Part shown: in pieces, positions 2,522-53,832 of the stretch
How positions within the stretch are numbered: position 1 is the first letter of the stretch
How the letters are laid out: each line of letters begins with the position of its first letter
Assembly: GCA_963552955.1 (NCBI GenBank)
Contig: CAUVLQ010000007.1
Location: forward strand, 1,200 to 65,199
DNA: 64,000 nt
Source of the DNA: an uncultured bacterium
GTDB taxonomy: Bacteria; Patescibacteriota; Gracilibacteria; Absconditabacterales; Absconditicoccaceae
Reading direction: 5' to 3'
Notes under the pieces: generated by a model
Database searches by the model: none
What the model saw: the letters and a program-made list of their open reading frames with translations, nothing else
Told to the model about the DNA's origin: nothing
Made by a program: the position numbers and the translations under genes

Positions 2522-3499
2522 ATGAATATTAATCATTCTAGGGAATCTAAGAATACAATATCAGAGGTGCAGAATATTCCATTTAGCTCAATCGCTCTTT
2601 GACCTTCGGGGGAGAGAAACAGCCCTCAGGTTACAATTGATGAGCTTAAACAGGTCTACCTTGATTCAGTTGAAGCAAATATTCGTGTGATGGGGGTGAG
2701 AAATCCTGACTCTATACGTGTAAGTTTGTATCATGCTCAGAGTATTGAGAATATTTTTAGGATTGGAAGACAATACATTAGTCAGCCTGTTCATAAGGCT
2801 GAGTGAAGTTGTGGTATTAAACTTTCTAATTCTGGTAATTTTAAGTTTGATCCGGTTATTTCTTTTGATCCCCAAGCGTTCACAGATAAGCAAAGCCTTC
2901 TTGATGTTGTTTATCATGAAGCTTCTCATTTGGTGTTTCAGTGTGATTATCTTCTTAATAAAATTGATCAAGATTCATCTGGTCTTCCAGCGATCGAGAT
3001 CATTAATAATGCAATTAATCAGTATAATGGAGATGTTAATGCTAGATTTAAAACTGAGTTTTTTGCTCGTGTTGTTTCTGCTGATTATGTTCATAAGGAG
3101 GGGGAGAACTGAAGAAGAGTTTGGGAGGCAACGGGAACCTCACCTATTCAATGACAATCTACTGAATATAATGATTCAATCCTTTATGCTAAAGAGTTTA
3201 CTCATATGAAGATTCAGCTTTATAATCTTTTAGCTAGACAGTATGGAATGGATCCTAATAGGGAAAGAAATAGTCAATTGATTCCTGCTGCAGATCAGCT
3301 CTTTCAATCGTATCTTAGAGATCTTTTGCATATTTTTATGAGGGATGATTGTACCATGGAAAGGATCAAGGATCTTATAAATCATGCTTCTAGTATCTTG
3401 TCCCGTGTTGTGCAGAATCCTCACTGAACCTATGAGAAGTTTTATGCTGATTTTTCAGCTACTATAGGGTATTGAAATAGCTGAACTTTTAGCAGATAA
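2522..3499 (+). CDS. hypothetical protein with HExxH motif (possible zinc metallopeptidase)
   Basis: ATG 2522. One frame through ORFs 2930-3112 and 3206-3427 with several TGA=Gly, ending TAA 3497-3499. VVYHEASHLVF contains HExxH. No other recognisable family signature. Confidence 0.5.
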
Positions 3500-3680
3500 A
3501 AGGTAGTGTGCTCTTATATTATATGTATATTATCCGTTTCTATTCACTCGTTCCCTTGTATGTTTAATTCAGATTTCTTGAGAAAAATGCAATAAAAGAA
3601 AAAACTGAATATAAAAAAACGTTTGTTTTAGGGATAAAAATCGCTATAGATAATCAGAGTTTTTATTCTTTTGAAATGAG

Positions 3681-5126
3681 GTGATGGAGTATGTGATTAC
3701 GGTTGGGCTGGAGATTCATTTGAAACTAGCGACAGCGACCAAGATTTTTTGTCCCTGTAAAAATGAGCAAAATCTGGATGATAATCATCCAAATACAACA
3801 GTATGTCCAGTATGTACTGCGCAGCCTGGTGCTTTGCCGCAGTTGAGTGAAGAAGTTGTAAAAAAGGGATTGCTTTTAGGGAAAGCGCTCAAATGTGTGG
3901 TTCAAAATCCTTCATCATTTGATAGAAAGTCGTACTTTTATCCAGATTTGCCGATGGGATATCAGATTACGCAGTTTTATCGTCCGATCAATGTTAACGG
4001 TCAGCTTTCTTTTTTTTCTGAGACCTTTGATGAGGAGAGAACCGTAACGATTACTGACGCTCATCTGGAATGTGATACTGCTAAAGTATTGCATTATAAT
4101 GGTAAAATGTTGCTAGATTTTAACCGTGCAGGGACGCCATTGATAGAAATCGTAACGGGGCCAGATTTTCAGAGCGCTGATGAGGCTGTTGCTTTTGCAA
4201 AGGAGATTCAGAGGATCGCAAAATATAATCAGATTTCTGATGCAGATATGGAGAAGTGACAGATGAGAGTTGATGTAAATGTTTCGATTAGACCTTCACT
4301 TGATGCTCCGTTTGGAACGAGAGTTGAGCTGAAAAATATTAATTCATTTTCTGCGATCAAAAGAGCGATTGAAACTGAGGTAAAAAGACAGCTTGCATGC
4401 CGAGAAACAAATGAGCCAATCAATCAGGAGACAAGAAGACGAGATGATCTGAAAGGAATGTCCTTTACGATGAGGAGCAAGGAAGATGCGCTTGATTATA
4501 GATATTTTCCAGAGCCTGATTTGCCAGAGCTTCAGTTAAAAAAAGAGCTCTTGGATGAGGTGAATGCTAGTGATATCTTGCTTCCTTATGAAAAAATTAA
4601 AGAAATGAAATCTGATTTCGGTTTTCATAAGGAGTTTATCAATGTTTTGATCAATGATAAGGAAGTATTAGATTTTTTCTATGACTTGGTGAAAATGGGC
4701 TTTTGACCGAAGCTTGTAGCGAAGCGGATTGCAGGTCCGATCAGTGCCTATATGACTGCGAATGCAGTTGCGATCTCTGAATTAAAAATTGATAGGGAGC
4801 AGTTAATCAGCTTTTTTAAGCTTGCAGAAGAAGGTAAATTGATAGAAAATCAGTTGAAGATTTTGATGGATGAGTTGCTCAATCAGTGAGGTGATTTGCA
4901 GGAAATTATCAAGGAGAAAGGATTTGATGCTCCTCCTGTTAGTGAAGATGAGATTATTGAAGTTGCGAAGGGGGTTTTAGATGTGAATCCTCAGATTGTT
5001 GAGCAGTATAAAGGTGGAAAAGTTACAGTGATTGGGTTTTTTGTTGGGCAGGTGATGAAACAAACGCAATGAAAGGCGAATCCAAAGCAGATTCAGGAGA
5101 TTATGACAAGATTGTTGTCGGCTTAG
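3681..5126 (+). CDS. gatB: aspartyl/glutamyl-tRNA(Asn/Gln) amidotransferase subunit B
   Basis: VITVGLEIHLKL, CPVCTAQPGALP, FDRKSYFYPDLP, DMEK-G-QMRVDVNVS (G is TGA 4257-4259). C-terminal GatB/YqeY domain VIGFFVGQVMK. Four in-frame TGA. TAG stop 5124-5126. Start is GTG 3681 or ATG 3684. Confidence 0.95.
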
Positions 5127-5926: not shown

Positions 5927-6656
5927 TTTTTACTGGAGAATAAATACTAGGAGTTGTTCACTGCAGTGAAACAAATGTTTGGAGTGGTAATACGACATTA
6001 TTGCTTCGTTGGCTCGGTGTATAATGTTTGCTCGTGAGTGTAATAAAGAGCCAAAAACCTGGTTTCCCTGCAGGTGGAAGTTTACTTATATTAGAATCTT
6101 GGTTTTCGATTTCATATATTTTCTGTAGATCTTGGTTAGAGATGAAAGGGATAATTTTAAACTGGGCTTGGCTAATATTGAATTTTTTGCTGTCTAGAAG
6201 CGTGATTGTCTCTCAGTTTTTTTTAAGTATGAGTTTGCAATTGGAATTTCTGATGGTTTTGAGTGTTTCTTCGTTTTCCACTGGGAGAAGTTCTGAAGAT
6301 AATCAGTTTTCTTTTTCCTTTCGGAGCTCAGAGGCTTGGAAACAAGTTCCGGTAGTGTTTATGGTTATTCCTTGATTTTTCTCATCTTTGAGGTGGAGTT
6401 CAGAGACGATTCCTCCTGATGATTGTAGATCAGAATAGCTATATTCTGGTTTTGAGTAATCGATTGTGTATGTCTGAGCGAGGTTTTCTAATACTTGTGT
6501 AAAAACAAGGGCTTCTTTTGCGATTTCTTTTTCCTGCTGGATACGATAGGAAATTCTAGAGATAGTGGTATAGGTTTGGAGAATAATCCCAGAAAGGAGT
6601 CAGAAAAGTCAGACTACAATCAGAATTTCAACGAGAGTAAATGCTTTATTTTTCAT
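5907..6656 (-). CDS. type IV pilin-like protein (prepilin-type N-terminal methylation motif)
   Basis: N-terminus MKNKAFTLVEILIVVGLFGLLSGIIL is the class III signal/methylation motif (the two G in VVGLFG are TGA). Frame is continuous 6656 to TAA 5907-5909. Confidence 0.75.
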
Positions 6657-6693
6657 AGGAATGTGAGGACTAAAGAAAATGGAAATCAGATTT

Positions 6694-7329
6694 TTATCTT
6701 TCTGAATCTCTAGGTCAGAGGAGGCTTTCTAGGATAACTTCTCCTGTGAAACTTCATCTTTTATAAATCACATGAGAACTGACTTTTAGAAGCTCTAAGT
6801 TTCCAATCTTGAGGGGAATAAATTCAATTCGTCTAGCATAGCCTTTGTTTGGAGTTTCGGTTGTTGCTTTATAGGTATAGGGAGTGAGGGTAATATTTTC
6901 TTGGGGTTTAAGTTTTGTGAGTTCAAGAGCAAAAGTTTTGAAATACTCATCAAAAGTATCAGCTGTGTATTCTCAGATTTCTGTCTTTTCTAGGAGATAA
7001 TAGGGATTTTGATCTTTATTGACTGAAAGTCCGATTTTGAAGGTGGTATTTCAGTCTTTTCAGAGAAACTCTTCTTTTCCTCACTCTTTATTTTGATTTT
7101 CAATTCGTGCGTAGTAGTCCCGAGGATAACCTTGTTCGAGATTACTATCTCTATGATGAAATGCAAGATCGATTCCTTCTTTTGCTAAAAGTGTAGCTCT
7201 TGTCTGCATATTGATGGTATCAAAGTTTTTGACGCTATTAGCCATGATCGAGAGAATCGCTAGGATTCCAACTCAGAAAATCACGATAACGATCAGAATT
7301 TCTATGAGGGTAAAAGCTTTTTTTCTCAT
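6694..7329 (-). CDS. type IV pilin-like protein (prepilin-type N-terminal methylation motif)
   Basis: N-terminus MRKKAFTLIEILIVIVIFGVGILAIL (G is TGA). 211 codons to TAA 6694-6696. Missing from the standard-code ORF track because of frequent TGA. Confidence 0.8.
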
Positions 7330-7536
7330 CAGAGGAATAGTTGTGTAAAATATAGATTATATATAGGTATTGTAAGCAAAAAATCAAATATATTATTGAT
7401 TGAATCAGATTTTCTCTTGATTTGTTGGTATGGTTTTATACCATTTCTTAGTAAGTCGATAGAAAAATAGGGAAAATCTGGATAAAATGGGAGTTTACCC
7501 TTTATAATAGTTCTTATTTCTAATATATCTTGTATC

Positions 7537-33694: not shown

Positions 33695-33813
33695 GAGTAC
33701 GGTTTTCTATAGGATAAATCATATTTTGTGTTTGCTAGATATACCCAATCCTTTCAAAAATACAAATCTTTCTTGCAATTGATAAGCAAATCGCTATAGT
33801 GGTGATGTTATAT

Positions 33814-33894
33814 GCTGAGGTGATGGAATTGGTATACATGTACGCTTGAGGTGCGTATGCCTTTGGCTTGAGGGTTCGAGTCCCTTCCTCAGCA
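33814..33894 (+). tRNA. tRNA-Leu(GAG), class II
   Basis: Acceptor GCTGAGG/CCTCAGC, anticodon stem TACGC/GCGTA, loop TTGAGGT, long variable arm, T-arm GAGGG-TTCGAGT-CCCTT. CCA not encoded. Confidence 0.85.
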
Positions 33895-33966
33895 TTTTTT
33901 TGTATCTTAATTTTTTTAGGAGAGGAGTCCGGAGGTATCAAGTTTGTTGATATTCTCTAGTTCAAT

Positions 33967-35495: not shown

Positions 35496-36113
35496 ATGCG
35501 AAAAATTTGCCTTGGAGTCGGTGGAATCTTAGCTATTGTTTTTTTTTCTTCTTTCTTCCCTTTGTTCAAAAAACACCAATCAGACCTTAGAATTTGAAGT
35601 TTTTCTGAATATGCAGTCGAAAATCCTCTTGTTATATTATGGAATAATTATTTTATTGAGCTCGATTCTCCAGTAGTTAAGGTTTCAGATTTTTTTTCTT
35701 TTGAGCTCCCTCGTGAACTAAAAGATGTGAAATTTTCAGATTATGGCGAAAGCTTTTCATTGCGTTTTTTTAGCTTAGATGATCAAAAGGGGATCACACT
35801 CAGAAATGAAATCTGACAGGACTTATCTGTTCTACAGCAGCTTGAAACAGTATGTAAAACGGGAATAATCCCTTGATCTGCTCGTATTGAGCAGGTTTTT
35901 ACAGGGGAAAGAATAATTGATAATAAACTCGTTCCTTATTTTATATTTCTGCAGGATACTATAGATGCAAAGCAGGAACTCATTAAGAAATCTGATCAAA
36001 ATGCTCATTATTATTTCTGTTTTTGGAATGTGAAAGGAGTGCTATATCTCCAATTTGATGGTTATGCGAGTGGAGTAATAGAAAATATTATAGATACGAT
36101 TAGCTTTTTATAG
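35496..36113 (+). CDS. hypothetical secreted/membrane protein
   Basis: N-terminal hydrophobic ICLGVGGILAIVFFSSFF. Three in-frame TGA. 618 nt to TAG 36111-36113. Confidence 0.45.
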
Positions 36114-36193
36114 TTTTTCTTTGATTAGTCCTTGAAAAAATAGAGAAAATAGCTAAGCTCAGATTTAGGATTTTTACTAATAATTGTAATGAT

Positions 36194-37837
36194 ATGAGCC
36201 AAATAACTTTGTCAGAAAAGGAAGTGAGAACACAAAAAACTCATAAAATGAAAAAGATGGGGATTCATCCCTATGCTCAGAGTTTCCAGAAGAAGGATCT
36301 TATTAGCGATATTATTGCACAGTATGAGGGGCAGACACTTCGTGATAGTGAGGAGGTGGTTTTGAATCCTCAGGTGCAAGTTCAGACTGCCGGTAGAGTA
36401 ATGCTTTATCGTTCTCATGGGAAGCTTGCGTTTGCTAAAATTTTGGATAGTAGTGATCAGATTCAGTTAATGTTTCACAGAGATCACTGTAAGATTCTTA
36501 AGACGATTACCAATTCTAATGGGAAAAGTGAGGATGTTGCTGTTGATGTGCTTGAAAATGCTGATACTGAATCAGGAGAACTTTCTGCATATAAATTCAT
36601 GGAGAAGATGGTTGATCTTTGAGATTTTATCGGAGTAAAGGGAGAGGTTTTTAAGACACATAAGGGAGAACTTACGATTTTTGTTTCAGAATTCAAATTT
36701 TTGTCTAAGGCGATCAGACCCTTGCCTGAAAAGTTTCATGGACTCAATGATCAGGAGGAGCTTTATAGAAAGAGGTATCTAGATATGACGATGAATCCTG
36801 AAACCTATCAGAGATTTTTGTTTAAGTCAAAGTTTTATCAGGTTTTGAGAGATTTTTATAGATCTAGAGGATTTACTGAGATTCAAACTCCAATCTTAGA
36901 TAATGCAGCTTCTGGAGCTGCAGCAAGGCCTTTTATTACGCATCATAATGATTTTAATACTGATGTATATTTGAGGATTGCCTTTGAAACTTCTCTTAAA
37001 AAAGCAACGGTTGGTAGGTTTGAAAAGGTTTTTGAGATAGGTCAGGATTTTAGAAATGAAGGATCGGATCCTTCTCATGTTCAGGAATTTACTCAGGTAG
37101 AGCATTATGCTGTGTACTGGAATTATGAGGATAATATGAAGTTTACTGAGGAGATGTTTGATTATCTTTTTGAGCATCTTGGGCTAGAAAAGAAGCTTAA
37201 GGTAAAAGATAAAGACTGAATTGAGAAAACGGTTGATTTTACAACTCCTTGGAAGAAAATTGATTATACTCAAGGGGTAAATAAGGCTAGTGGACTTAAT
37301 ATCTCTAAGTATGGGATTGATGATGCAGATAGACTTAGAGCAGACATTCAGGCAAAGGGAATTACTTTTGAGGGCATGGAAAATATGGGAACCACTACGC
37401 TTATTGACTATTTGTACAAAAAGGTGTTGAGACCAAAGATTGTAGGTCCAGCATTCATCTATAATTACCCAGTGATTATGCAGCCTTTGGCGAGAGTTTC
37501 AGATGCTGATGAGCAGATTGTTGAGCAATTTCAGCTTTTGGTGAATGGATGGGAAATCTGTAAGGCATATTCTGAACTTGTAGATCCAATTTTGCAGCAG
37601 GAGAACTTTGATCTTCAGGCTGAGGCAAGTAAAAAATGAGATGATGAAGCTACAAGTGGAGATGACGCATTTGTTGAGGCGATGGAATATGGAATGCCTC
37701 CTCAGTCAGGATTTGGTATGGGACTTGAGAGGATTTTAGCGATTTTGACAGAACAGGAAAACCTCAGAGATGTTGTGATGTTCCCACTTATGAAGGCTAG
37801 AAATCAAGATATTACCTCAGAAGATGAAGAAAAATAG
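36194..37837 (+). CDS. lysS: lysine--tRNA ligase (class II)
   Basis: OB-fold N-domain. KRYLDMTMNPE, FTEIQTPIL (motif 1), FRNEG (motif 2), FGMGLERI (motif 3). Three track ORFs in one frame joined by TGA. Confidence 0.95.
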
Positions 37838-43387: not shown

Positions 43388-45250
43388 TTAATTTTTCATT
43401 TCATCAAACCCTCTCTCAAAAGAGTGAAAAACTGTGAGTTTTTTCTCTTTGATGACTCGGAGGAGATCTGAGGTCGCTTCTAGAAAATCTCTATCATGGG
43501 AAACGATCAAGCTCACTCCATTAAAATCTGCAAGCATTGTTTTTATTGCTTCTTTTGAGCCGAGATCCAGGTGGTTGGTTGGTTCATCCATTACAACGAT
43601 ATCTGGGTGTGCAAGCAGCATTTTTGCTAGTGCCACTTTTGATTTTTCTCCTCCTGAGAGACTTCAGATTTTTTGCTCAGCTTTTTCTGGATCGAGGAGT
43701 AAGGCTCAGAGGAAGCTCATTGCTTCTTTGAATGAAACCCCAGGTCAGACAAGTTCTTCTGTGACGGTTGCGTTAAAGTCTAGATCATCTGCGATCTGGG
43801 AGTAAAATCAGATTTTTACTTTTTCATGGATCCAGATATCTCAGTATTGGGGTTTTAATGCTCATAAAATTGTCTTTAAAAGCGTTGTTTTTCAGGCACC
43901 ATTTTTTCCAATGATTCAGATCTTCATCGTTTTTGTAATTTCAAGGTTTTTTGGTAAAGAGACGAGTGTGTTTTCTCAGTATCCAACTTGAAGCTCAGAA
44001 ATTCTGATCAATGTTTCTGGGAGTCTTCGTGTGACCTGAAGTTTTGGTTTATGGACTGATGATTCTAGTTCTGGAGCCTCGATTTTATCCATTTTATCAA
44101 GCATTTTGATTCTGCTCTGGACTTGCGAGGCTTTACTGGATTTGTAGCGGAATCTTTCGATAAATCTTTCTTGCTGAGCGAGGTATTTTTGTTGGGCAGT
44201 ATAGTTTTTGAGTTGAATTTCTTCTCTTTTTTCTTTTTCTAGTAGAAAATCTTCATATCAACAAAAATAGAGATTCAGTTTTTTATTTTTTATTTCTACA
44301 GTTTTATTGAAGGTAGAACCTAGGAATTTTCTATCATGAGAAATACAGATTAGTGCCTTATTTCGCATTTTACAGAAAGCTTCAATAAAGAGAATTCCCT
44401 CAATGTCTAGATGGTTTGTTGGTTCATCAAGAATTAAGAGATCGACGTCCTGGAGCAAAAATTTGGCGATTTGGACTTTTGTTTGTTCTCCTCAGGAGAG
44501 TTGCGAAATTTTGAAACTCAATTGTTCTTTGCTGAATCCGAAATATTTGAGAATCTCTTGCTGTAGATCATATTTTTGATAGGCTTCATTGATGAGCATT
44601 CGCTCGATAATTTCATTTTGTACCTCAATGAGTTCGATTGAGTTTTCTGGATTTTCGTCCAAAAGTCTTTTGATTTCCTCGAGCCTTTGGACTTTTTTTG
44701 TGATCTCTGGGAATGTTGTTAGCATCTCGTCTGCTACTGTTCTTTCTCTGGATTCTCGAAATAAATCTTGTGAGAGAAATCAGATTTTTGTATCCTTTAA
44801 AATGTCAATGTCTCCGTGATCAGCCAGTTCTGGATTGAGAAGTATTTTGAGAAAAGTTGATTTTCCTGCGCCGTTTTTCCCTACAAGTGCGATTTTATCT
44901 TCAGGTTTAATTCTTAGCTCGGCGTCTTCAAAGAGGATTGTTGAGCCAAGCTGTTTGCAGAGCCCTTTGATGGTTATGAGATAATCAGCAGATTTTTTGT
45001 TGGTGTAATTGAAAAGGTGTCTTGGGATAGAGGAGAATGAGTTTAGTTTTTCAGCATTTTTTTCTGGTAAACCTTCTCGCTGAACTCAAAATTCTCTTGT
45101 AAGATATTTTTTGAGGCTTTTTTCTTTCGTTTCTTCCTTGGTCTTTTCTGAAAATTGTGCGAGATATTCATAGCAAACTTCTGCAATTTCATCAAAAGAA
45201 AAATCTGAATGAAGCTCCTGAACTTTATTGATGATTGCTGATAAATCCAT
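43388..45250 (-). CDS. ABC-F family ATPase (two ABC domains, no TM domain)
   Basis: Walker A GKNGAGKST and GKNGAGKTT. Signatures LS-G-GEQTKV (TGA 44492-44494) and LSGGEKSKV. LLILDEPTNHLD and VVMDEPTNHLD. Four track ORFs in one frame. Confidence 0.9.
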
Positions 45251-45390
45251 TGAAAATAGTCTAAAGTTAAACAATAGTGCTCAATAGTGTAGTGATTGAC
45301 TAGGGATTTACAAGGGGAATAAAAAAACTATCACTTCCTCTTGAAAATCAAAGTGAAAAAGATATAAAGCAAATCGTCATCATATATGGA

Positions 45391-45997: not shown

Positions 45998-46261
45998 ATG
46001 CCAATTAAGAAGTCAGCAATCAAAGCTATGAATAGATCTCAAACTCTTGCTAAGAGAAACTATGATTTCAAACTTAGAATGAAGATGGCTATGAAAAAAT
46101 TCCTTAAGGGAGTTGAAGCTAAAGAGGCTTTGACTGTTGAGGATCTAGCAAATGTTTACAAGGCTATTGATAAGGCTGCAAAGGTTGGTGTTATCAAGAA
46201 GAGAAATGCCTCAAGAAAAAAGTCTAGAATTTCAAAAGCATTTGATACTTTGAAGAAATAG
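45998..46261 (+). CDS. rpsT: 30S ribosomal protein S20
   Basis: MPIKKSAIKAMNRSQTLAKRN...KAIDKAAKVGVIKKRNASRKKSR is typical bS20. Embedded in the tRNA array. Confidence 0.9.
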   Translation: MPIKKSAIKAMNRSQTLAKRNYDFKLRMKMAMKKFLKGVEAKEALTVEDLANVYKAIDKAAKVGVIKKRNASRKKSRISKAFDTLKK

Positions 46262-46569: not shown

Positions 46570-46646
46570 GGGTGATTAGCTCAGTTGGCTAGAGCATCTG
46601 CCTTACAAGCAGGGGGTCATAGGTTCGAGTCCTATATCACCCACCA
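46570..46646 (+). tRNA. tRNA-Val(UAC)
   Basis: Acceptor GGGTGAT/ATCACCC, anticodon stem TCTGC/GCAGG, loop CTTACAA. CCA encoded. Last host feature before the phage-like element. Confidence 0.9.
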
Positions 46647-46851: not shown

Positions 46852-47291
46852 TCAAATTTGCAATCTCAAAGACTTTGTCGCCTCCAATAAGGAGATAAGA
46901 GAGAGCATCACAGTTAAAAGAGTTGTTAGGTTGCGACTCTTTATATCTGCTTAGGCTAATACTGATGGTTAAGTACACAATTTTCTTAGTAGTAAAAATT
47001 CTGAGTGCAGTAATGATTGTACTTTGGATCCGGTTTAATCTTTCTGTGCTCCTACTGATTGGTGTGCCTTGTATCATTAGTATTGCTTGATCAGAATGAT
47101 GGTTGCCTCAACCAAAAAAGAGGCAGAGAACTTTATTTGTTAAGAATTACCTATGCAAATAAAGTTCATGTATAGAACTGAAGATTGAGATTATATCTTC
47201 AAGTTCTCAGGAGAATATGTGGGGTGCGTATTTGTACCGCCCCACAGAGTACAGAAATTCATCAAACTTTTAGGTCAATACTTGGTATAAG

Positions 47292-48314
47292 ATGAGAAAA
47301 CTCAAGGGACAAAAAGACCTTGTGAATTACTCAGCCAAGATAGCCTTAGAGTTTGGGAATGTAGCTCGTGCAATTCTCTACTCGCAGATTATCTATCGGC
47401 GAGATATTAAGCAAAGGTCTGAATTTTATAAGACAGACAAAGAACGATCTTTAGAGTTATGATTATGATTATCAGAAATCAAATATACAAAAAAACGGCT
47501 GAAAGATAACTGATATATCATAACTCAGCATAAAAGATTAGATCATTCCACAAGTTATATTGTGGAAGAAAATCAGCTCAATACCTTATTGATAAAGCTG
47601 TATTGAGAAACTTATCAGAACAGGGAGCATTGTCAAAATTGACTATCGGTAAAGTCAGAATTGGCTATCGGTAAAGTTAAATCTGACGATAGCGAAAGTC
47701 AAAATTGACTATCGGTAAAGTCAGAATTGACGTTCGATATAAGAACAGAAACTACAACAGAGATTACAACAGAGAGTGTAGAGAGAGTAGAGCAACCTCC
47801 ACCCACACAATTTGATAAAATCGAATTTGTTGGGAAAATGAGAGATGCAGAAAAAAGAGGAAGTGTTTATCTCTCGACCTGGAACAAAATCACTGGTAGA
47901 AATGATTTCCTTACTGAGGAGATTAAAAAGAAACTTTTCAATTTTTCAAATCTGAGTTTGCAAGATTTCGCTCTCAGAGCAGAAAAATTTGAAGTTATTA
48001 AATCGCTTATTCTAGCGAAAAAAATGGAAAAATATTTCTTCAGCAGGATTCGAGAGCGAGATTTTGGACAGTTTCTAGCAAAGTTTAACGACTTTTGAGG
48101 AACTGACGAGGAAATTGTTTCCAAACTCGCAATCTTTACTGAGGTTAAGAAAGCTTTGAGAATCCTTGCTACTCCTGAAGCTTCGCCAGTCCCAGAGCAA
48201 AAACCGCTGAGCGAAGAAGAGAAACAAGAACAAAAAGCAAAGCTAGAACAAGCAAAACAGCAACTTTTATCCAAGTTATCCATTTCTTATGACAACAACA
48301 CAATTAGCCACTAG
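47292..48314 (+). CDS. phage replication initiator / replisome-organizer-like protein containing internal iterons
   Basis: ATG 47292 is in frame with ORF 47727-48098 (only TGA between them) and ends at TAG 48312-48314, overlapping the recT start. N-terminal HTH-like NYSAKIALEFGNVARAILYSQIIY. Internal DNA repeats encode QN-G-LSVKSEL twice. Confidence 0.55.
47632..47729. repeat. iteron-like repeats (candidate replication origin) inside the initiator gene
   Basis: Perfect 32 bp direct repeat gtcaaaattgactatcggtaaagtcagaattg at 47632-47663 and 47698-47729. A third ctatcggtaaagt copy at 47665-47677. Inverted repeat gctatcg/cgatagc at 47664-47670 and 47687-47693. Confidence 0.7.
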
Positions 48315-52729: not shown

Positions 52730-52930
52730 ATGGAAACTTTTGAGACAAAAGAGATTCATGAGGATGATATTCCATACACTAGTGGTTGGGGATATGACTT
52801 ATTTGAATGAGGGTATTTAAAACCTGAGAATATTCTAAAGAACCAAGAGGATATTGATGAAGTCAATAATGCGATAAAGGTTCTTGAAAAATACAAGGCT
52901 ATATGGGATAAAAACAATTGGTATTTATAA
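52730..52930 (+). CDS. small hypothetical phage protein (66 aa)
   Basis: ATG 52730. One TGA. Acidic. Ends at TAA 52928-52930, just before the hairpin tctcccc/ggggaga. Confidence 0.35.
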
Positions 52931-52958
52931 TCAGCTTTCTCCCCTGATGGGGAGATAT

Positions 52959-53066
52959 GCAGAGGTGGCGGAATAGGTAGACGCTTTTGGGTAACGCATA
53001 ACTACAAGGGGAGATAGTGCCTGAGGAATCAGCCCCTATGCGAGGTGCAAATCCTCGCCCTCTGCT
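52959..53066 (+). ncRNA. aberrant 108-nt tRNA-like gene (Leu-type D-arm, oversized central region)
   Basis: Perfect acceptor GCAGAGG/CCTCTGC. D-arm GCGGAATAGGTAGACGC (Leu-like). T-arm (G)CGAGG-TGCAAAT-CCTCG(C). 56 nt in between do not fold into a normal anticodon arm plus variable arm. Confidence 0.5.
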
Positions 53067-53129
53067 CAATTTTGATTTCTACTTTTGTAGATTTGTATTA
53101 TTTTTACCTAGTCCTTTTAGACTAGGTGT

Positions 53130-53187
53130 GCAACAGTAGCTCATTGGTAGGGCGCTAGAGGTGTTGGTTCGATTCCAACCTGTTGCA
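53130..53187 (+). ncRNA. 58-nt tRNA-like gene lacking an anticodon arm
   Basis: Acceptor GCAACAG/CTGTTGC. D-arm GCTC-ATTGGTA-GGGC. T-arm GTTGG-TTCGATT-CCAAC. Only 9 nt (GCTAGAGGT) lie where the anticodon arm and variable loop should be. Confidence 0.5.
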
Positions 53188-53340
53188 ATTGATGATCGAC
53201 ACTAGTGTTATGTGGCGTGCACACTACATAATACTAAGGTTGTTCATTTTCGGAGGGGACGCCCTCCTGTATACAGAGGACGGCTAAGCCAAGAGAGCGA
53301 GTAAGCTCTCCCTCTGGAGATTTTAGATGAAAGTATCAGA

Positions 53341-53832
53341 ATGAAAAAAATACTAGACGTCTGCTGTGGTGGCCGCACCTTTCGGCGAGATAAGAATAAT
53401 CCACTAGCTGAGTATATGGACATAAGAAGAGAAGAAGCCTGATTTATCACTGCGAGACCTAACTTTGTTGTGGATCCAGACTTTGTGGCCGACTTCCGTG
53501 CTATCCCAAGACCCGACAATTCTTATAAGCTCGTAGTATTTGACCCTCCGCATTTAATTCATGCAGGAGAAAAATCTTGGCTGAAAGGTAAGTATGGTAA
53601 GCTTACCAAGGAGAGCTGGCCAGCCGATCTTAAGCAGTGATTCAGAGAGTGTATGAGAGTATTAGAGCCGTATGGAACTCTCGTATTCAAGTGGAACGAG
53701 AATCAAGTTAAGCTCCATGAAGTCCTCAGGGCTATAGACTATACTCCACTCTTCGGAACGAGGAGCGGTAGGAATGGAACGACAATACGACTAGTTTTTA
53801 TGAAGATACCAAAAGAAGAATGCAACCAATAA
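53341..53832 (+). CDS. small SAM-dependent DNA methyltransferase (DPPH motif)
   Basis: ILDVCCGG (motif I), LVVFDPPH (motif IV, DPPY-type). One TGA. Segment TF-CGG-CGA-DKNNP. GC-richer than its surroundings. Confidence 0.7.

Follow-up and report, generated by a model that had tools for sequence, protein, structure and literature searches.

Two short tRNA-like elements lie next to each other in a prophage of an uncultured bacterium of the Absconditabacterales, within a stretch of 64,000 nucleotides (contig CAUVLQ010000007.1, positions 1,200 to 65,199) which was analysed as a whole and is referred to here as the window. Element 1 (E1) and element 2 (E2) both reside in the intergenic stretch 52931-53340 (~400 nt) and are encoded on the same strand as the flanking genes. 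Upstream, the dnaN clamp gene is followed by a 66-codon open reading frame (ORF; 52730-52930, stop codon 52928-52930); downstream, two methylase genes are present, the first of which starts at 53341. We consider it near certain that E1 and E2 are real, conserved, non-decoding tRNA-like RNA genes and that E1 belongs to a large phage-borne family.

Genomic setting

The window is written in genetic code 25 (TGA=Gly), as in Absconditabacteria and Gracilibacteria. TGA has to be read as a sense codon for ORFs to be continuous across the whole window (1-64000), it occupies canonical glycine positions—e.g., in the cytosine methylase motifs PCQ-G-FS and HL-G-DV—and ORF calling with table 11 splits nearly every gene. 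With TGA translated as glycine, the neighbour proteins give full-length Pfam matches, comprising all three DnaN domains, a C-5 methylase, RecT, an AAA/SMC-type ATPase, and portal and Mu-F domains. Host chromosome makes up the left part of the window as far as the prophage junction; the prophage extends from ~46.65 kb, after a tRNA-Val gene (46570-46646), and beyond 46650 phage replication, recombination and structural genes are found, the other prophage end being located outside the window. An att repeat was not found in the window. The closest genome match is SR1 bacterium HOT-345, and it is near certain that E1 and E2 are carried by a prophage of an SR1/Absconditabacteria-type host with TGA=Gly. 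Given that the genome recodes TGA, a role of the elements as TGA-suppressor tRNAs was considered and rejected, as neither has an anticodon loop; a tRNA with the anticodon UCA was not found within the 64-kb window.

Anatomy of the two elements

E1 consists of the following parts:

52959-53066 (108 nt), forward strand: E1, an anticodon-less, Leu-derived tRNA-like RNA gene (sequence, fold and family alignment)
52959-52965, forward strand: 5' strand of the acceptor stem (GCAGAGG/CCTCTGC, 7/7 pairs)
52968-52984, forward strand: D-arm of the tRNA-Leu type, GGCGGAATAGGTAGACGC, preceded by UG
52985-53039 (55 nt), forward strand: insert (allele A), replacing the anticodon and variable arms
53007-53037, forward strand: structured arm within the insert, occupying the place of a class II variable arm (minimum free energy (MFE) and centroid fold)
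53040-53058, forward strand: T-arm GCGAGG-TGCAAAT-CCTCGC with a 6-bp stem
53059-53065, forward strand: 3' strand of the acceptor stem, followed by the discriminator T (U73) at 53066

The D-arm GGCGGAAUAGGUAGACGC thus follows the acceptor strand and UG. The RNAfold MFE structure gives the acceptor, D and T helices together with the insert arm, which is built from AGGGG, a 9-nt bulge, CUGA-GGAA-UCAG with GGAA as a GNRA loop, and CCCCU; a C-to-T change in this arm in the related locus L004 keeps the pair as G.U (loci collected in the course of the analysis are designated by L numbers). A preliminary description, made by a model from the sequence, had reported the perfect 7 bp acceptor stem, the Leu-type D-arm, the 6-bp T stem and the long arm AGGGG...CCCCT containing CTGA-GGAA-TCAG, all of which are present, the arm being reproduced by the MFE fold. 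The absence of a normal anticodon arm between D-arm and T-arm was likewise described correctly, with the correction that the interval is 55 nt rather than 56 nt long. In contrast, the weak anticodon stem-loop TTTTG/GGTAACG/CATAA proposed for this interval is neither part of the MFE fold nor conserved; apart from it, the structural coordinates given there hold within 1 nt.

E1 lacks the canonical 7/5 stack and U54-U55-C56 loop of tRNAs and instead has a 7/6 stack and the loop UGCAAAU. It carries A3-U70 and U73, with TCAA instead of CCA after the discriminator. ARAGORN makes no call for E1, and nothing in Rfam 15 matches it up to E = 10.

E2 is closer to a conventional tRNA:

53130-53187 (58 nt), forward strand: E2, a tRNA-like gene without anticodon arm (Rfam tRNA match)
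53130-53136, forward strand: 5' strand of the acceptor stem
53139-53153, forward strand: D-arm
53154-53162, forward strand: linker of 9 nt
53163-53179, forward strand: T-arm with the loop TTCGATT
53180-53186, forward strand: 3' strand of the acceptor stem, followed by the discriminator A at 53187

It has the canonical 7/5 stack with the loop UUCGAUU and scores 50.8 bits on the Rfam tRNA model RF00005 (gathering score 29; E = 6e-8 for the whole window), and because of this E-value it is beyond chance. The alignment spans all 71 model positions, with 13 inner anticodon-arm positions aligned to nothing. The perfect acceptor stem, D-arm and T-arm, with 9 nt in place of the anticodon arm, were found just as the preliminary description had them. 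ARAGORN makes no call on E2 either, and for neither element did covariance models or ARAGORN recover a standard cloverleaf.

The E1-type family

Searching with blastn for the window region among GenBank phages gave nothing at E <= 1e-5, and the family surfaced only with the short conserved arms as queries. The exact 20-mer of the E1 T-arm occurs in at least 120 metagenome stretches and, among GTDB genomes, at phage-like loci in Bacillus glycinifermentans, Paenibacillus, a Clostridiales metagenome-assembled genome, Levilactobacillus acidifarinae and SR1 HOT-345; the other six GTDB matches are chance occurrences in GC-rich coding DNA. Prophage relatives in IMG/VR contain both ends of E1 exactly, in one case with a different 107-nt middle. 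From these sources, 57 distinct elements were compiled that share a common D-arm and have 7/7-paired acceptor stems of unrelated sequence. In their common plan, GUGGCGGAAUAGGUAGACGC comes after the first 7 nt, which form one acceptor strand; an insert of 15 to ~500 nt leads on to (A)U-GCGAGGUGCAAAUCCUCGC, and the complementary acceptor strand, again of 7 nt, closes the element. A further 55 elements were obtained from an independent IMG/VR sample picked by the D-arm alone, where only ~10 of the D-arm hits were ordinary tRNA-Leu-like genes of 81-91 nt. Overall, more than 100 distinct copies are contained in metagenomes, IMG/VR and cultured phages; all family counts are lower bounds from pattern-selected scans and not unbiased frequencies.

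In an alignment of 37 sequences, the three helices are paired in 99.7% of their cells. For the acceptor stem the value is 99.2%, with five to six pair types at each of pairs 1-6, and the covariation score of 0.514 compares with 0.09 in shuffles, none of 500 reaching 0.514. When the partner columns were slid as a control, pairing dropped to 37-53% of cells. Since E1 is a member of a family with a paired and covarying acceptor stem, it is beyond chance as well.

The arms are more constrained than the acceptor. The D-arm consensus UGGCGGAAUAGGUAGACGC, which is of the Leu type (3 bp plus G.A), is near-invariant, and E1 is identical to it. In the D-arm-selected sample, the T-loop UGCAAAU, in which G replaces the U55 of tRNAs, is present in 47 of 55 elements, and all 55 have a 6-bp T stem in which pairs 2-4 covary (pair 2: UA 34, CG 15, UG 5, AU 1). 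The sixth pair is G-C in 51/55, the rest (A-U in two, C-G in one, U.G in one) retaining pairing, and 'AU' directly precedes the T stem in 50/55; E1 conforms with AU-GCGAGG-UGCAAAU-CCUCGC. The acceptor/T stack accordingly is 7/6, i.e., 13 bp versus the 12 bp of tRNA. The discriminator is A in 27, U in 13, C in 8 and G in 7 of the 55 elements, and since it is variable, E1-type genes are not tied to one aminoacylation identity.

On the family model R1, E1 scores 89.8 bits (E1 and two of its closest relatives were in the seed alignment), while host tRNA-Leu genes reach only ~28 bits; E-values from R1 are rough. Relics of a Leu anticodon loop are discernible in L138 (CUUAAGA) and L072 (CUUAGGG) which, together with the Leu-type D-arm, indicates that the family is derived from tRNA-Leu. 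A CCA end is encoded in 2/101 E1-type elements as opposed to 90/247 ordinary tRNAs on the same contigs (p = 1e-13), and U is found at position -1 in 46% of the E1-type copies.

The tRNA-Leu relics, i.e., the D-arm of E1 and the anticodon loops of its relatives, are what would be expected if the elements were functionless pseudogenes decaying after loss of the anticodon arm. This explanation, altogether improbable for the pair, is excluded for E1, where more than 100 copies across phyla have intact, covarying helices, a derived but conserved G55 T-loop and a conserved sixth T-stem pair. The argument of the preliminary description that perfect helices speak against simple decay is thereby borne out for E1 by family-wide covariation and conservation across phyla; random degradation of the helices was not seen among the homologues.

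The same features bear on whether the elements might be aminoacylated, non-ribosomal or rescue tRNAs, charged without an anticodon in the manner of AlaRS, LeuRS or SerRS, or resembling the tRNA-like domain of transfer-messenger RNA (tmRNA). In tmRNA, acceptor, D region, large insert, T-arm and acceptor follow one another in the same order; LeuRS reads the Leu-type D-arm; and a G3.U70 pair occurs in E1 of L005, L039 and L053, in an E2 counterpart (E2b, see below) of L004, and in arm-less elements of L008 and L017. However, G3.U70 alternates with A3-U70 among near-identical copies, A73, which LeuRS requires, is found in only about half of the copies, and CCA is almost never encoded. Furthermore, ARAGORN detects no tmRNA, the 45 unrelated insert families dealt with below have no conserved reading frame, and both G55 and the 13-bp stack would be unfavourable for EF-Tu and the ribosome. 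We therefore give charging little credence.

Occurrence in phages

E1-type elements were located in several cultured phages:

phi3T and SPbetaL1 (SPbeta-like): directly after yonN (BLAST / R1)
Goe3 (SPO1-like): in a tRNA island before the portal gene (BLAST / R1; BLAST matches also in SBSphiJ and BSP phages)
Listeria phage PSA: immediately upstream of the first late genes, with a putative late activator on one side and HNH/terminase on the other
Listeria phage LP-114: in an intergenic gap
Enterococcus phage phiFL3B: insert-free element of 54 nt

The carriers thus include both lytic and temperate phages. The phi3T element occupies positions 3000-3135 of locus L149, upstream of the site (3266-3289) matching the forward primer used in mapping the YonO late start of SPbeta, and therefore marks the end of the yonO-yonN unit, not the beginning of the late operon. 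By the same primer mapping, the identification of the E1-type element with the 'unannotated non-coding RNA' at the late start of SPbeta (PMC5467207) was rejected. A DUF3800-VIII RNA (RF03075, 44.7 bits) is present in phi3T upstream of yonK (L149 4363-4428) and may be that 'unannotated non-coding RNA' of the SPbeta late transcript (PMC5467207). Among the tRNAs of Goe3, a skipping-rope RNA was found (RF02924, 50.9 bits; L150 4086-4156). In L121 and L042, an ORF recognised by eye as terminase large-subunit-like lies 1-2 kb downstream of the element.

A conserved neighbour protein did not emerge from all-against-all clustering of 652 flanking ORFs, which yielded only proteins of a generic phage kind; among the clusters, the best one was judged YopX-like by eye and comprised 6 loci, and integrases were found at 4 loci.

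None of the six GenBank records examined has an RNA feature annotated at the element, and several have small ORFs labelled 'hypothetical protein' running across it. Rfam 15 has no family for the E1-type elements of the window, its relatives, the bacterial loci, phi3T or Goe3, nor does ARAGORN call E1-type elements. In the literature searched, with the motif sequence included, the family is not described, paywalled papers possibly differing in this respect; PMC10690425 lists tRNA-like candidates in phages in generic form only, and E1-type elements could be among its 10,006 unnamed entries. The E1-type family hence appears to be previously undescribed.

Two non-coding stretches of 0.9-1.1 kb, in L144 of Levilactobacillus acidifarinae (6474-7351) and in L150 of Goe3 (2560-3700), are crowded with tRNA-like modules: besides isolated T-arm hairpins and odd cloverleafs, they contain an arm-less tRNA and E1-type elements (one or two), suggesting that composite tRNA-like RNA islands exist in Bacillota phages.

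Variable inserts

The region between D-arm and T-arm is hypervariable, ranging from 0 to >200 nt across the family. The inserts of the 57 elements and two hand-added copies fall into 45 families without a shared motif, the commonest 6-mers being present in only 5/45 insert families. Insert-free members of 54-68 nt exist, from which it follows that the chassis is the conserved unit. Within subfamilies, insert stems covary, as judged by eye: between L034 and L021, GUCAGAU/AUCUGAC is replaced by GUCAGAG/CUCUGAU, with an internal hairpin of the same shape and another sequence, and between L031 and L053, AGCAG/CUGCU is replaced by AAUAG/CUAUU. The inserts are therefore not junk. An antisense target of the E1 insert was not found in the window, where the longest match of 12 nt is at chance level.

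Inserts are also exchanged as a whole. phi3T and Goe3 have a common insert despite different acceptor, D and T stems, and three alleles occur in the SR1 prophage group (A in the window, L004 and L005; B in L001, L039 and L058; C in L031, L053 and L148). These alleles replace the whole insert among close relatives, combine freely with the state of the E2 position and assort independently of the flanks; L058, for instance, shares the window's host tRNA cluster and the same E2, yet has allele B.

Exchange exactly between conserved halves might point to a DNA-level element, i.e., a recombination, attachment or packaging-related site, in keeping with an integrase adjoining some copies (L090, L034, L138) and with many copies lying within ~1 kb of a siphophage genome end or terminase region. 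Compensatory changes in the acceptor and T stems, in contrast, reveal selection on RNA; the orientation matches that of the flanking genes; and the same chassis is found inside tRNA islands of lytic myoviruses, so that we consider such a site highly improbable.

Least probable, and largely refuted, is the view that an interrupted or split tRNA, assembled by removal of an intron or from halves, matures to a decoder such as tRNA-Leu(UAA), an option raised in the preliminary description. While UAA stands in a loop-like context in E1, Leu anticodon-loop relics are found in relatives, and tRNA-Leu(UAA) is well known for harbouring group I introns, introns of neither group I nor group II were matched, the inserts are too short (55 nt in E1) and mutually unrelated, and the anticodon stem lacks its 3' strand. 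Moreover, the insert-free members offer nothing to splice, and E1 and E2 each have a complete acceptor stem of their own and assort independently.

Some inserts contain tRNA-like units themselves: L099 (909-1071) holds a complete cloverleaf-like sequence, and GGTTCGA-type T-arms are found in L112 and L092.

E2 and the arm-less class

The E2 homologue of L058 differs from E2 at three positions, all of which preserve the structure (G10-C25 to G.U, U12.G23 to U-A, and G57 to A57). In the SR1 group, the E2 position is found in three states: arm-less E2 (window, L058), E2b (L004, L039), or nothing (L001, L005, L148). E2b is 73-75 nt long and has the acceptor stem of E2, a non-canonical anticodon loop (5 nt or CCUGUUA) and an imperfect T stem.

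Using a degenerate pattern, 12 IMG/VR loci (11 distinct sequences) with a D-arm-to-T-arm gap of 11-16 nt were retrieved. Inspected by hand, eight have complete 7-bp acceptor stems and four have at least one mismatch; E1-type elements were not detected in these 12 contigs. About 35 further distinct IMG/VR elements have gaps of 18-23 nt, many of which correspond to an anticodon stem capped by a 3-5-nt loop. One 180-kb contig (L006, IMGVR_UViG_2529292852_000001) contains three arm-less genes of 54, 60 and 61 nt with related acceptor stems within 3.3 kb.

Arm-less genes are concentrated near E1-type genes. In all the compiled DNA that had not been chosen for arm-less elements, and with detectors for both classes (Python) that are strict heuristics, 13 were counted in the 0.42 Mb within ~1.5 kb of an E1-type gene versus 7 in the other 3.42 Mb, a ~15x difference in density; relative to normal tRNAs, the odds ratio near versus away from E1-type genes is 4.4 (p = 0.002). 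The pairing of E1-type and arm-less genes recurs in the SR1 prophage, in a Bacillus prophage (L138, L231), in L126, in the group of L232, L248, L274 and L283, and in L144, a Levilactobacillus prophage whose arm-less tRNA is called by Rfam itself. CCA is encoded in 1/20 arm-less elements as compared to 90/247 ordinary tRNAs (p = 0.003). The clean arm-less architecture thus recurs in unrelated phages, clustered beside E1-type genes.

Decay into a pseudogene is a less remote prospect for E2 than for E1, and still an unlikely one. E2 resembles E2b minus the anticodon arm, E2b in turn is defective in its anticodon loop and imperfect in its T stem, relatives can do without E2, and with the gaps of 11-23 nt in IMG/VR there is a near-continuum of shortened arms. 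Against this, the acceptor, D and T helices of E2 are perfect and all three L058 differences preserve structure; on the level of the class, the clean architecture occurs in unrelated phages with up to three copies per contig, the density is ~15x higher beside E1-type genes, and encoded CCA is avoided.

Among contigs of ~45 kb from IMG/VR sample 3300045988, which represent one phage lineage (L151, L158, L159, L181, L184, L187, L191, L198, L199 and others), a conserved tRNA-like gene was observed with the acceptor GGAATG/CATTCC and an anticodon arm reduced to an unpaired stub of ~12 nt.

Related systems

Tethering a tRNA fold to functions other than decoding is known from several systems. Plant mitochondrial t-elements are located at mRNA ends and act there in cis to direct RNase P and/or RNase Z (PMC5499578). 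E2 is alike in anatomy and in the proposed mechanism, and both E1 and E2 share with t-elements and mascRNA a retained acceptor and T-arm, the lack of a functional anticodon arm, an intergenic location and the same strand as the flanking genes. The t-elements, for which cleavage has been demonstrated and not, as for E1 and E2, predicted from shape, differ in being organellar, single, degenerate copies, whereas the E1 family is phage-borne and conserved in sequence, with a derived T-loop, a 6-bp T stem and cargo.

The mascRNA cut makes the 3' end of the upstream RNA, which is protected by structure just upstream, and the order of hairpin, 3 nt and element seen at E1 and E2 is analogous. For MALAT1 and MEN-beta, a small tRNA-like RNA is described that RNase P excises (PMC11693755). 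This system is that of eukaryotic nuclear long non-coding RNAs, with triple-helix protection and a short anticodon-like stem kept, and has no sequence relation to E1 or E2.

Among phages, the species 1 and species 2 RNAs of T4, known for 50 years, are the closest precedent. According to their annotation (rnaC, rnaD), they are small, stable RNAs of unassigned function encoded beside tRNA genes; rnaC has a canonical T-arm and an acceptor-like closing helix with a large insert between them, and thus exemplifies non-decoding, tRNA-framed RNAs in phage tRNA islands. Model R1 does not match rnaC or rnaD, which differ from E1 by the lack of a Leu-type D-arm, the canonical T-loop UUCGAAU and a different host range.

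The tRNA-like domain of tmRNA has the topology of E1, with an acceptor stem formed by the ends, a T-arm, and an insert replacing the anticodon arm; unlike tmRNA, E1 has a true D stem and the G55 T-loop, and conserved G3.U70 and A73 as well as a tag frame are missing. tRNA-Sec is similar to E1 in its 13-bp acceptor and T stack and its long variable-arm region, but this stack is 8/5 or 9/4 instead of 7/6, an anticodon arm and a 6-bp D stem are present, and the Rfam tRNA-Sec model does not match E1. In YrlA (Y RNA-like), the topology is reportedly permuted, the ends forming the Ro60-binding helix and the tRNA-like part being internal, whereas the ends of E1 form the acceptor stem. YrlA is a widespread bacterial and phage non-coding RNA with a tRNA-mimicking module (PMC4201824). 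It was not matched in any Rfam search, and a Ro60 (rsr) gene was not noticed among the neighbours inspected, with no search aimed at rsr made.

In the engineered 'tRNA scaffold', the RNA of interest replaces the anticodon arm, and the cell processes and stabilises the chimera. This scaffold is a laboratory construct, of which the E1-type elements look like a natural counterpart, both their processing and a cargo function being predicted. Taken together, tRNA-like processing signals without anticodon arm (t-elements, mascRNA) and the T4 species 1 and 2 RNAs are of a known kind, to which the present family appears to be an undescribed addition.

Proposed functions

RNase P, RNase Z and the CCA-adding enzyme recognise the acceptor helix, the T-arm and the D/T elbow. 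These determinants are just what E1 and E2 have retained, and the requirements of translation are removed or spoiled, there being no anticodon and, in E1-type elements, G for U55, 13 bp for 12 bp and no fixed discriminator. On the grounds of determinants kept and translation features lost, we propose that host tRNA end-processing enzymes may excise E1 and E2 from a polycistronic phage transcript. Of the explanations put forward in the preliminary description, it is this one—substrates of tRNA end-processing enzymes—that is favoured by the data, without being proven. An encoded CCA is an anti-determinant of RNase Z, and because of this the avoidance of encoded CCA fits a need for endonucleolytic RNase Z cleavage.

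Both elements are preceded by a hairpin:

52938-52955, forward strand: hairpin 1, TCTCCCC-TGAT-GGGGAGA, beginning 8 nt past the stop of the 66-codon ORF (sequence and fold)
53107-53126, forward strand: hairpin 2, CCTAGTC-CTTTTA-GACTAGG, with 9 bp in the fold (sequence and fold)

These are the 7 bp hairpins already noted in the preliminary description, the first of which is shifted by 1 nt. In either case, 3 nt separate the end of the hairpin from the +1 base of the element (TAT before E1, TGT before E2). Hairpin 1 covaries, CCCC/GGGG being changed to CCTC/GAGG (a compensatory C-G to T-A) in L004, L005, L058 and L148; hairpin 2 is present in L001, L004, L039 and L058 and in the variant form GCCTAGC-TAA-GCTAGGC in L005 and L148, and has, together with E2, a folding z of -3.0. 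Cleavage by RNase P at +1 would leave a 3' end 3 nt past a covarying hairpin, which favours a role similar to that of t-elements or mascRNA. Besides this hairpin spacing in the SR1 group, the avoidance of encoded CCA and the U at -1 in 46% of copies lend indirect support to the predicted cleavage.

In the explanation to which we incline, still tentatively, host RNase P and RNase Z would excise these translation-inert elements and thereby cut the transcript at a module boundary. Hairpin 1 or 2, situated 3 nt ahead of the RNase P site, would then form the end of the upstream mRNA, whose 3' end would thus be protected, and the downstream RNA would be uncoupled from it. The same cuts might release stable, tRNA-framed small RNAs, with the E1 frame displaying a swappable cargo domain. 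Positional support is seen in the location of the elements in the window, in phi3T and SPbetaL1, in PSA, and in L121 and L042; the covarying insert stems and the independently assorting alleles speak for constraint on the cargo.

Several observations weigh against this explanation. For every member of the family, processing is so far predicted from shape. RNase P and RNase Z need neither an invariant D-arm and T-loop nor G55 or a 13-bp stack, which hints at another, specific partner, and punctuation alone leaves the long, structured and diversified inserts as well as the side-by-side arrangement of tRNA-likes unexplained. The location at early/late boundaries and in tRNA islands may have been inherited from a tRNA-gene ancestry, ordinary tRNAs being 3.4x denser near E1-type elements. 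An upstream hairpin is not a family-wide feature, the mean folding energy being -8.7 kcal/mol as compared to -7.3 kcal/mol in control windows. Finally, E2 has a single close homologue (L058) and is an accessory cassette, dispensable among close relatives.

In a more far-reaching view, the E1-type chassis would be a widespread, unrecognised phage 'tRNA scaffold', translation-inert and matured by the tRNA-processing enzymes of the host, by which interchangeable, fast-evolving cargo is expressed and stabilised; E2-like elements would be its cargo-free relatives, and cargo and chassis would act in phage-host conflict, e.g., by binding or neutralising host factors. Such a role would explain both the swapping of alleles and the at least 45 unrelated inserts; we regard it as possible, though on the unlikely side.

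Of comparable, limited likelihood is the main rival to processing, according to which the elements are decoy, sponge or anti-defence RNAs whose chassis titrates a host factor that reads the tRNA elbow and acceptor. Candidate targets are a tRNA-targeting toxin or defence nuclease, a 3'-end nucleotidyltransferase, or a tRNA-modifying or tRNA-processing enzyme; the lack of decoding would leave translation undisturbed, and the insert of E1 would add lineage-specific binding specificity. The near-invariance of D-arm and T-loop beyond folding needs, combined with a free acceptor sequence, is indicative of a specific elbow-binding partner, which would be a host factor since no conserved phage protein partner was found. 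The 45 unrelated insert families on one chassis and the three swapped alleles resemble arms-race diversification, E2 is present, replaced or absent among relatives as is often the case with anti-defence genes, and the family is spread over lytic and temperate phages. On the other hand, the genomic context links no defence system or toxin to the elements, the best-known tRNA-directed defences cut anticodon loops, which the elements do not have, and with Bacillota and candidate phyla radiation (CPR) hosts the target would need to be very widely conserved.

Excision by host tRNA enzymes hence remains our preferred explanation, and the alternatives differ in what they would imply. If the elements are processing or insulator modules, RNA processing of the tRNA-punctuation type would be part of phage gene expression; as scaffolds or decoys, they would constitute an RNA-based layer in phage-host conflict and offer biotechnology a natural, portable chassis for RNA display. 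Discussions of phage tRNA genes usually treat them as decoders only, and here is a large, conserved set of phage 'tRNAs' incapable of decoding. It is overlooked by standard annotation, as is evident from ARAGORN, the Rfam families and the six GenBank records. A shared RNA gene links CPR (SR1) phages with Bacillota phages, and since model phages (phi3T, other SPbeta-like phages, SBSphiJ, Goe3, Listeria PSA) carry the family, its function is directly testable.

Further features of the locus

The remainder of the intergenic stretch contains additional non-coding features:

53067-53106, forward strand: spacer between E1 and hairpin 2, with a TCTAC/GTAGA hairpin followed by a T-rich run
53252-53267, forward strand: hairpin GGAGGG-GACG-CCCTCC
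53293-53310, forward strand: hairpin GAGAGC-GAGTAA-GCTCTC
53307-53320, forward strand: terminator-like TCTCC-CTCT-GGAGA plus T-run, upstream of the methyltransferase gene at 53341

The spacer is conserved in L001, L004, L039 and L058 and includes a promoter-like TTGATT-18-TATTAT, detected by a consensus scan only, in which matches were no more numerous than in shuffles. The features in 53252-53320 are conserved in L004, L005, L039, L058 and L148, including relatives that lack E2. No Pfam family matches the methyltransferase-like ORF 53341-53832.

In three relatives, a third odd tRNA-like gene of 73 nt is found upstream of E1 (L001 5378-5450, L058 792-864, L053 9169-9241), which is absent from the window. 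It has the loop CUCAUAA, is matched only by the tRNA-Sec model at sub-threshold 34-38 bits, and is not called by ARAGORN in L001, the sole locus run. In the ~300 nt that follow E1 allele C, L031 and L053 contain a conserved, GC-richer non-coding stretch (GTCCAATCCTGTAATGAC...), which is partly shared with L001 and matches no Rfam family.

On the host side of the prophage junction, the following ORFs were assigned:

36104-37837: lysyl-tRNA-synthetase-like (lysS-like) ORF, recognised by eye from its translation
43388-45307: ABC-F-like ORF, recognised by eye from its translation
45999-46261: S20-like ORF

The host side also holds a tRNA cluster, with nine tRNAs between window positions 33813 and 46646, and ends with the tRNA-Val at the junction. 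A tRNA-Leu(GAG) at 33813-33895, called by ARAGORN, is below the Rfam tRNA gathering score and reaches 28.6 bits on the E1-family model. Within the prophage, four tandem, iteron-like repeats of 22 nt (GTCAAAATTGACTATCGGTAAA and variants) are located at 47632-47739 inside the ORF 47274-48314, and likely represent the phage replication origin inside the initiator gene.

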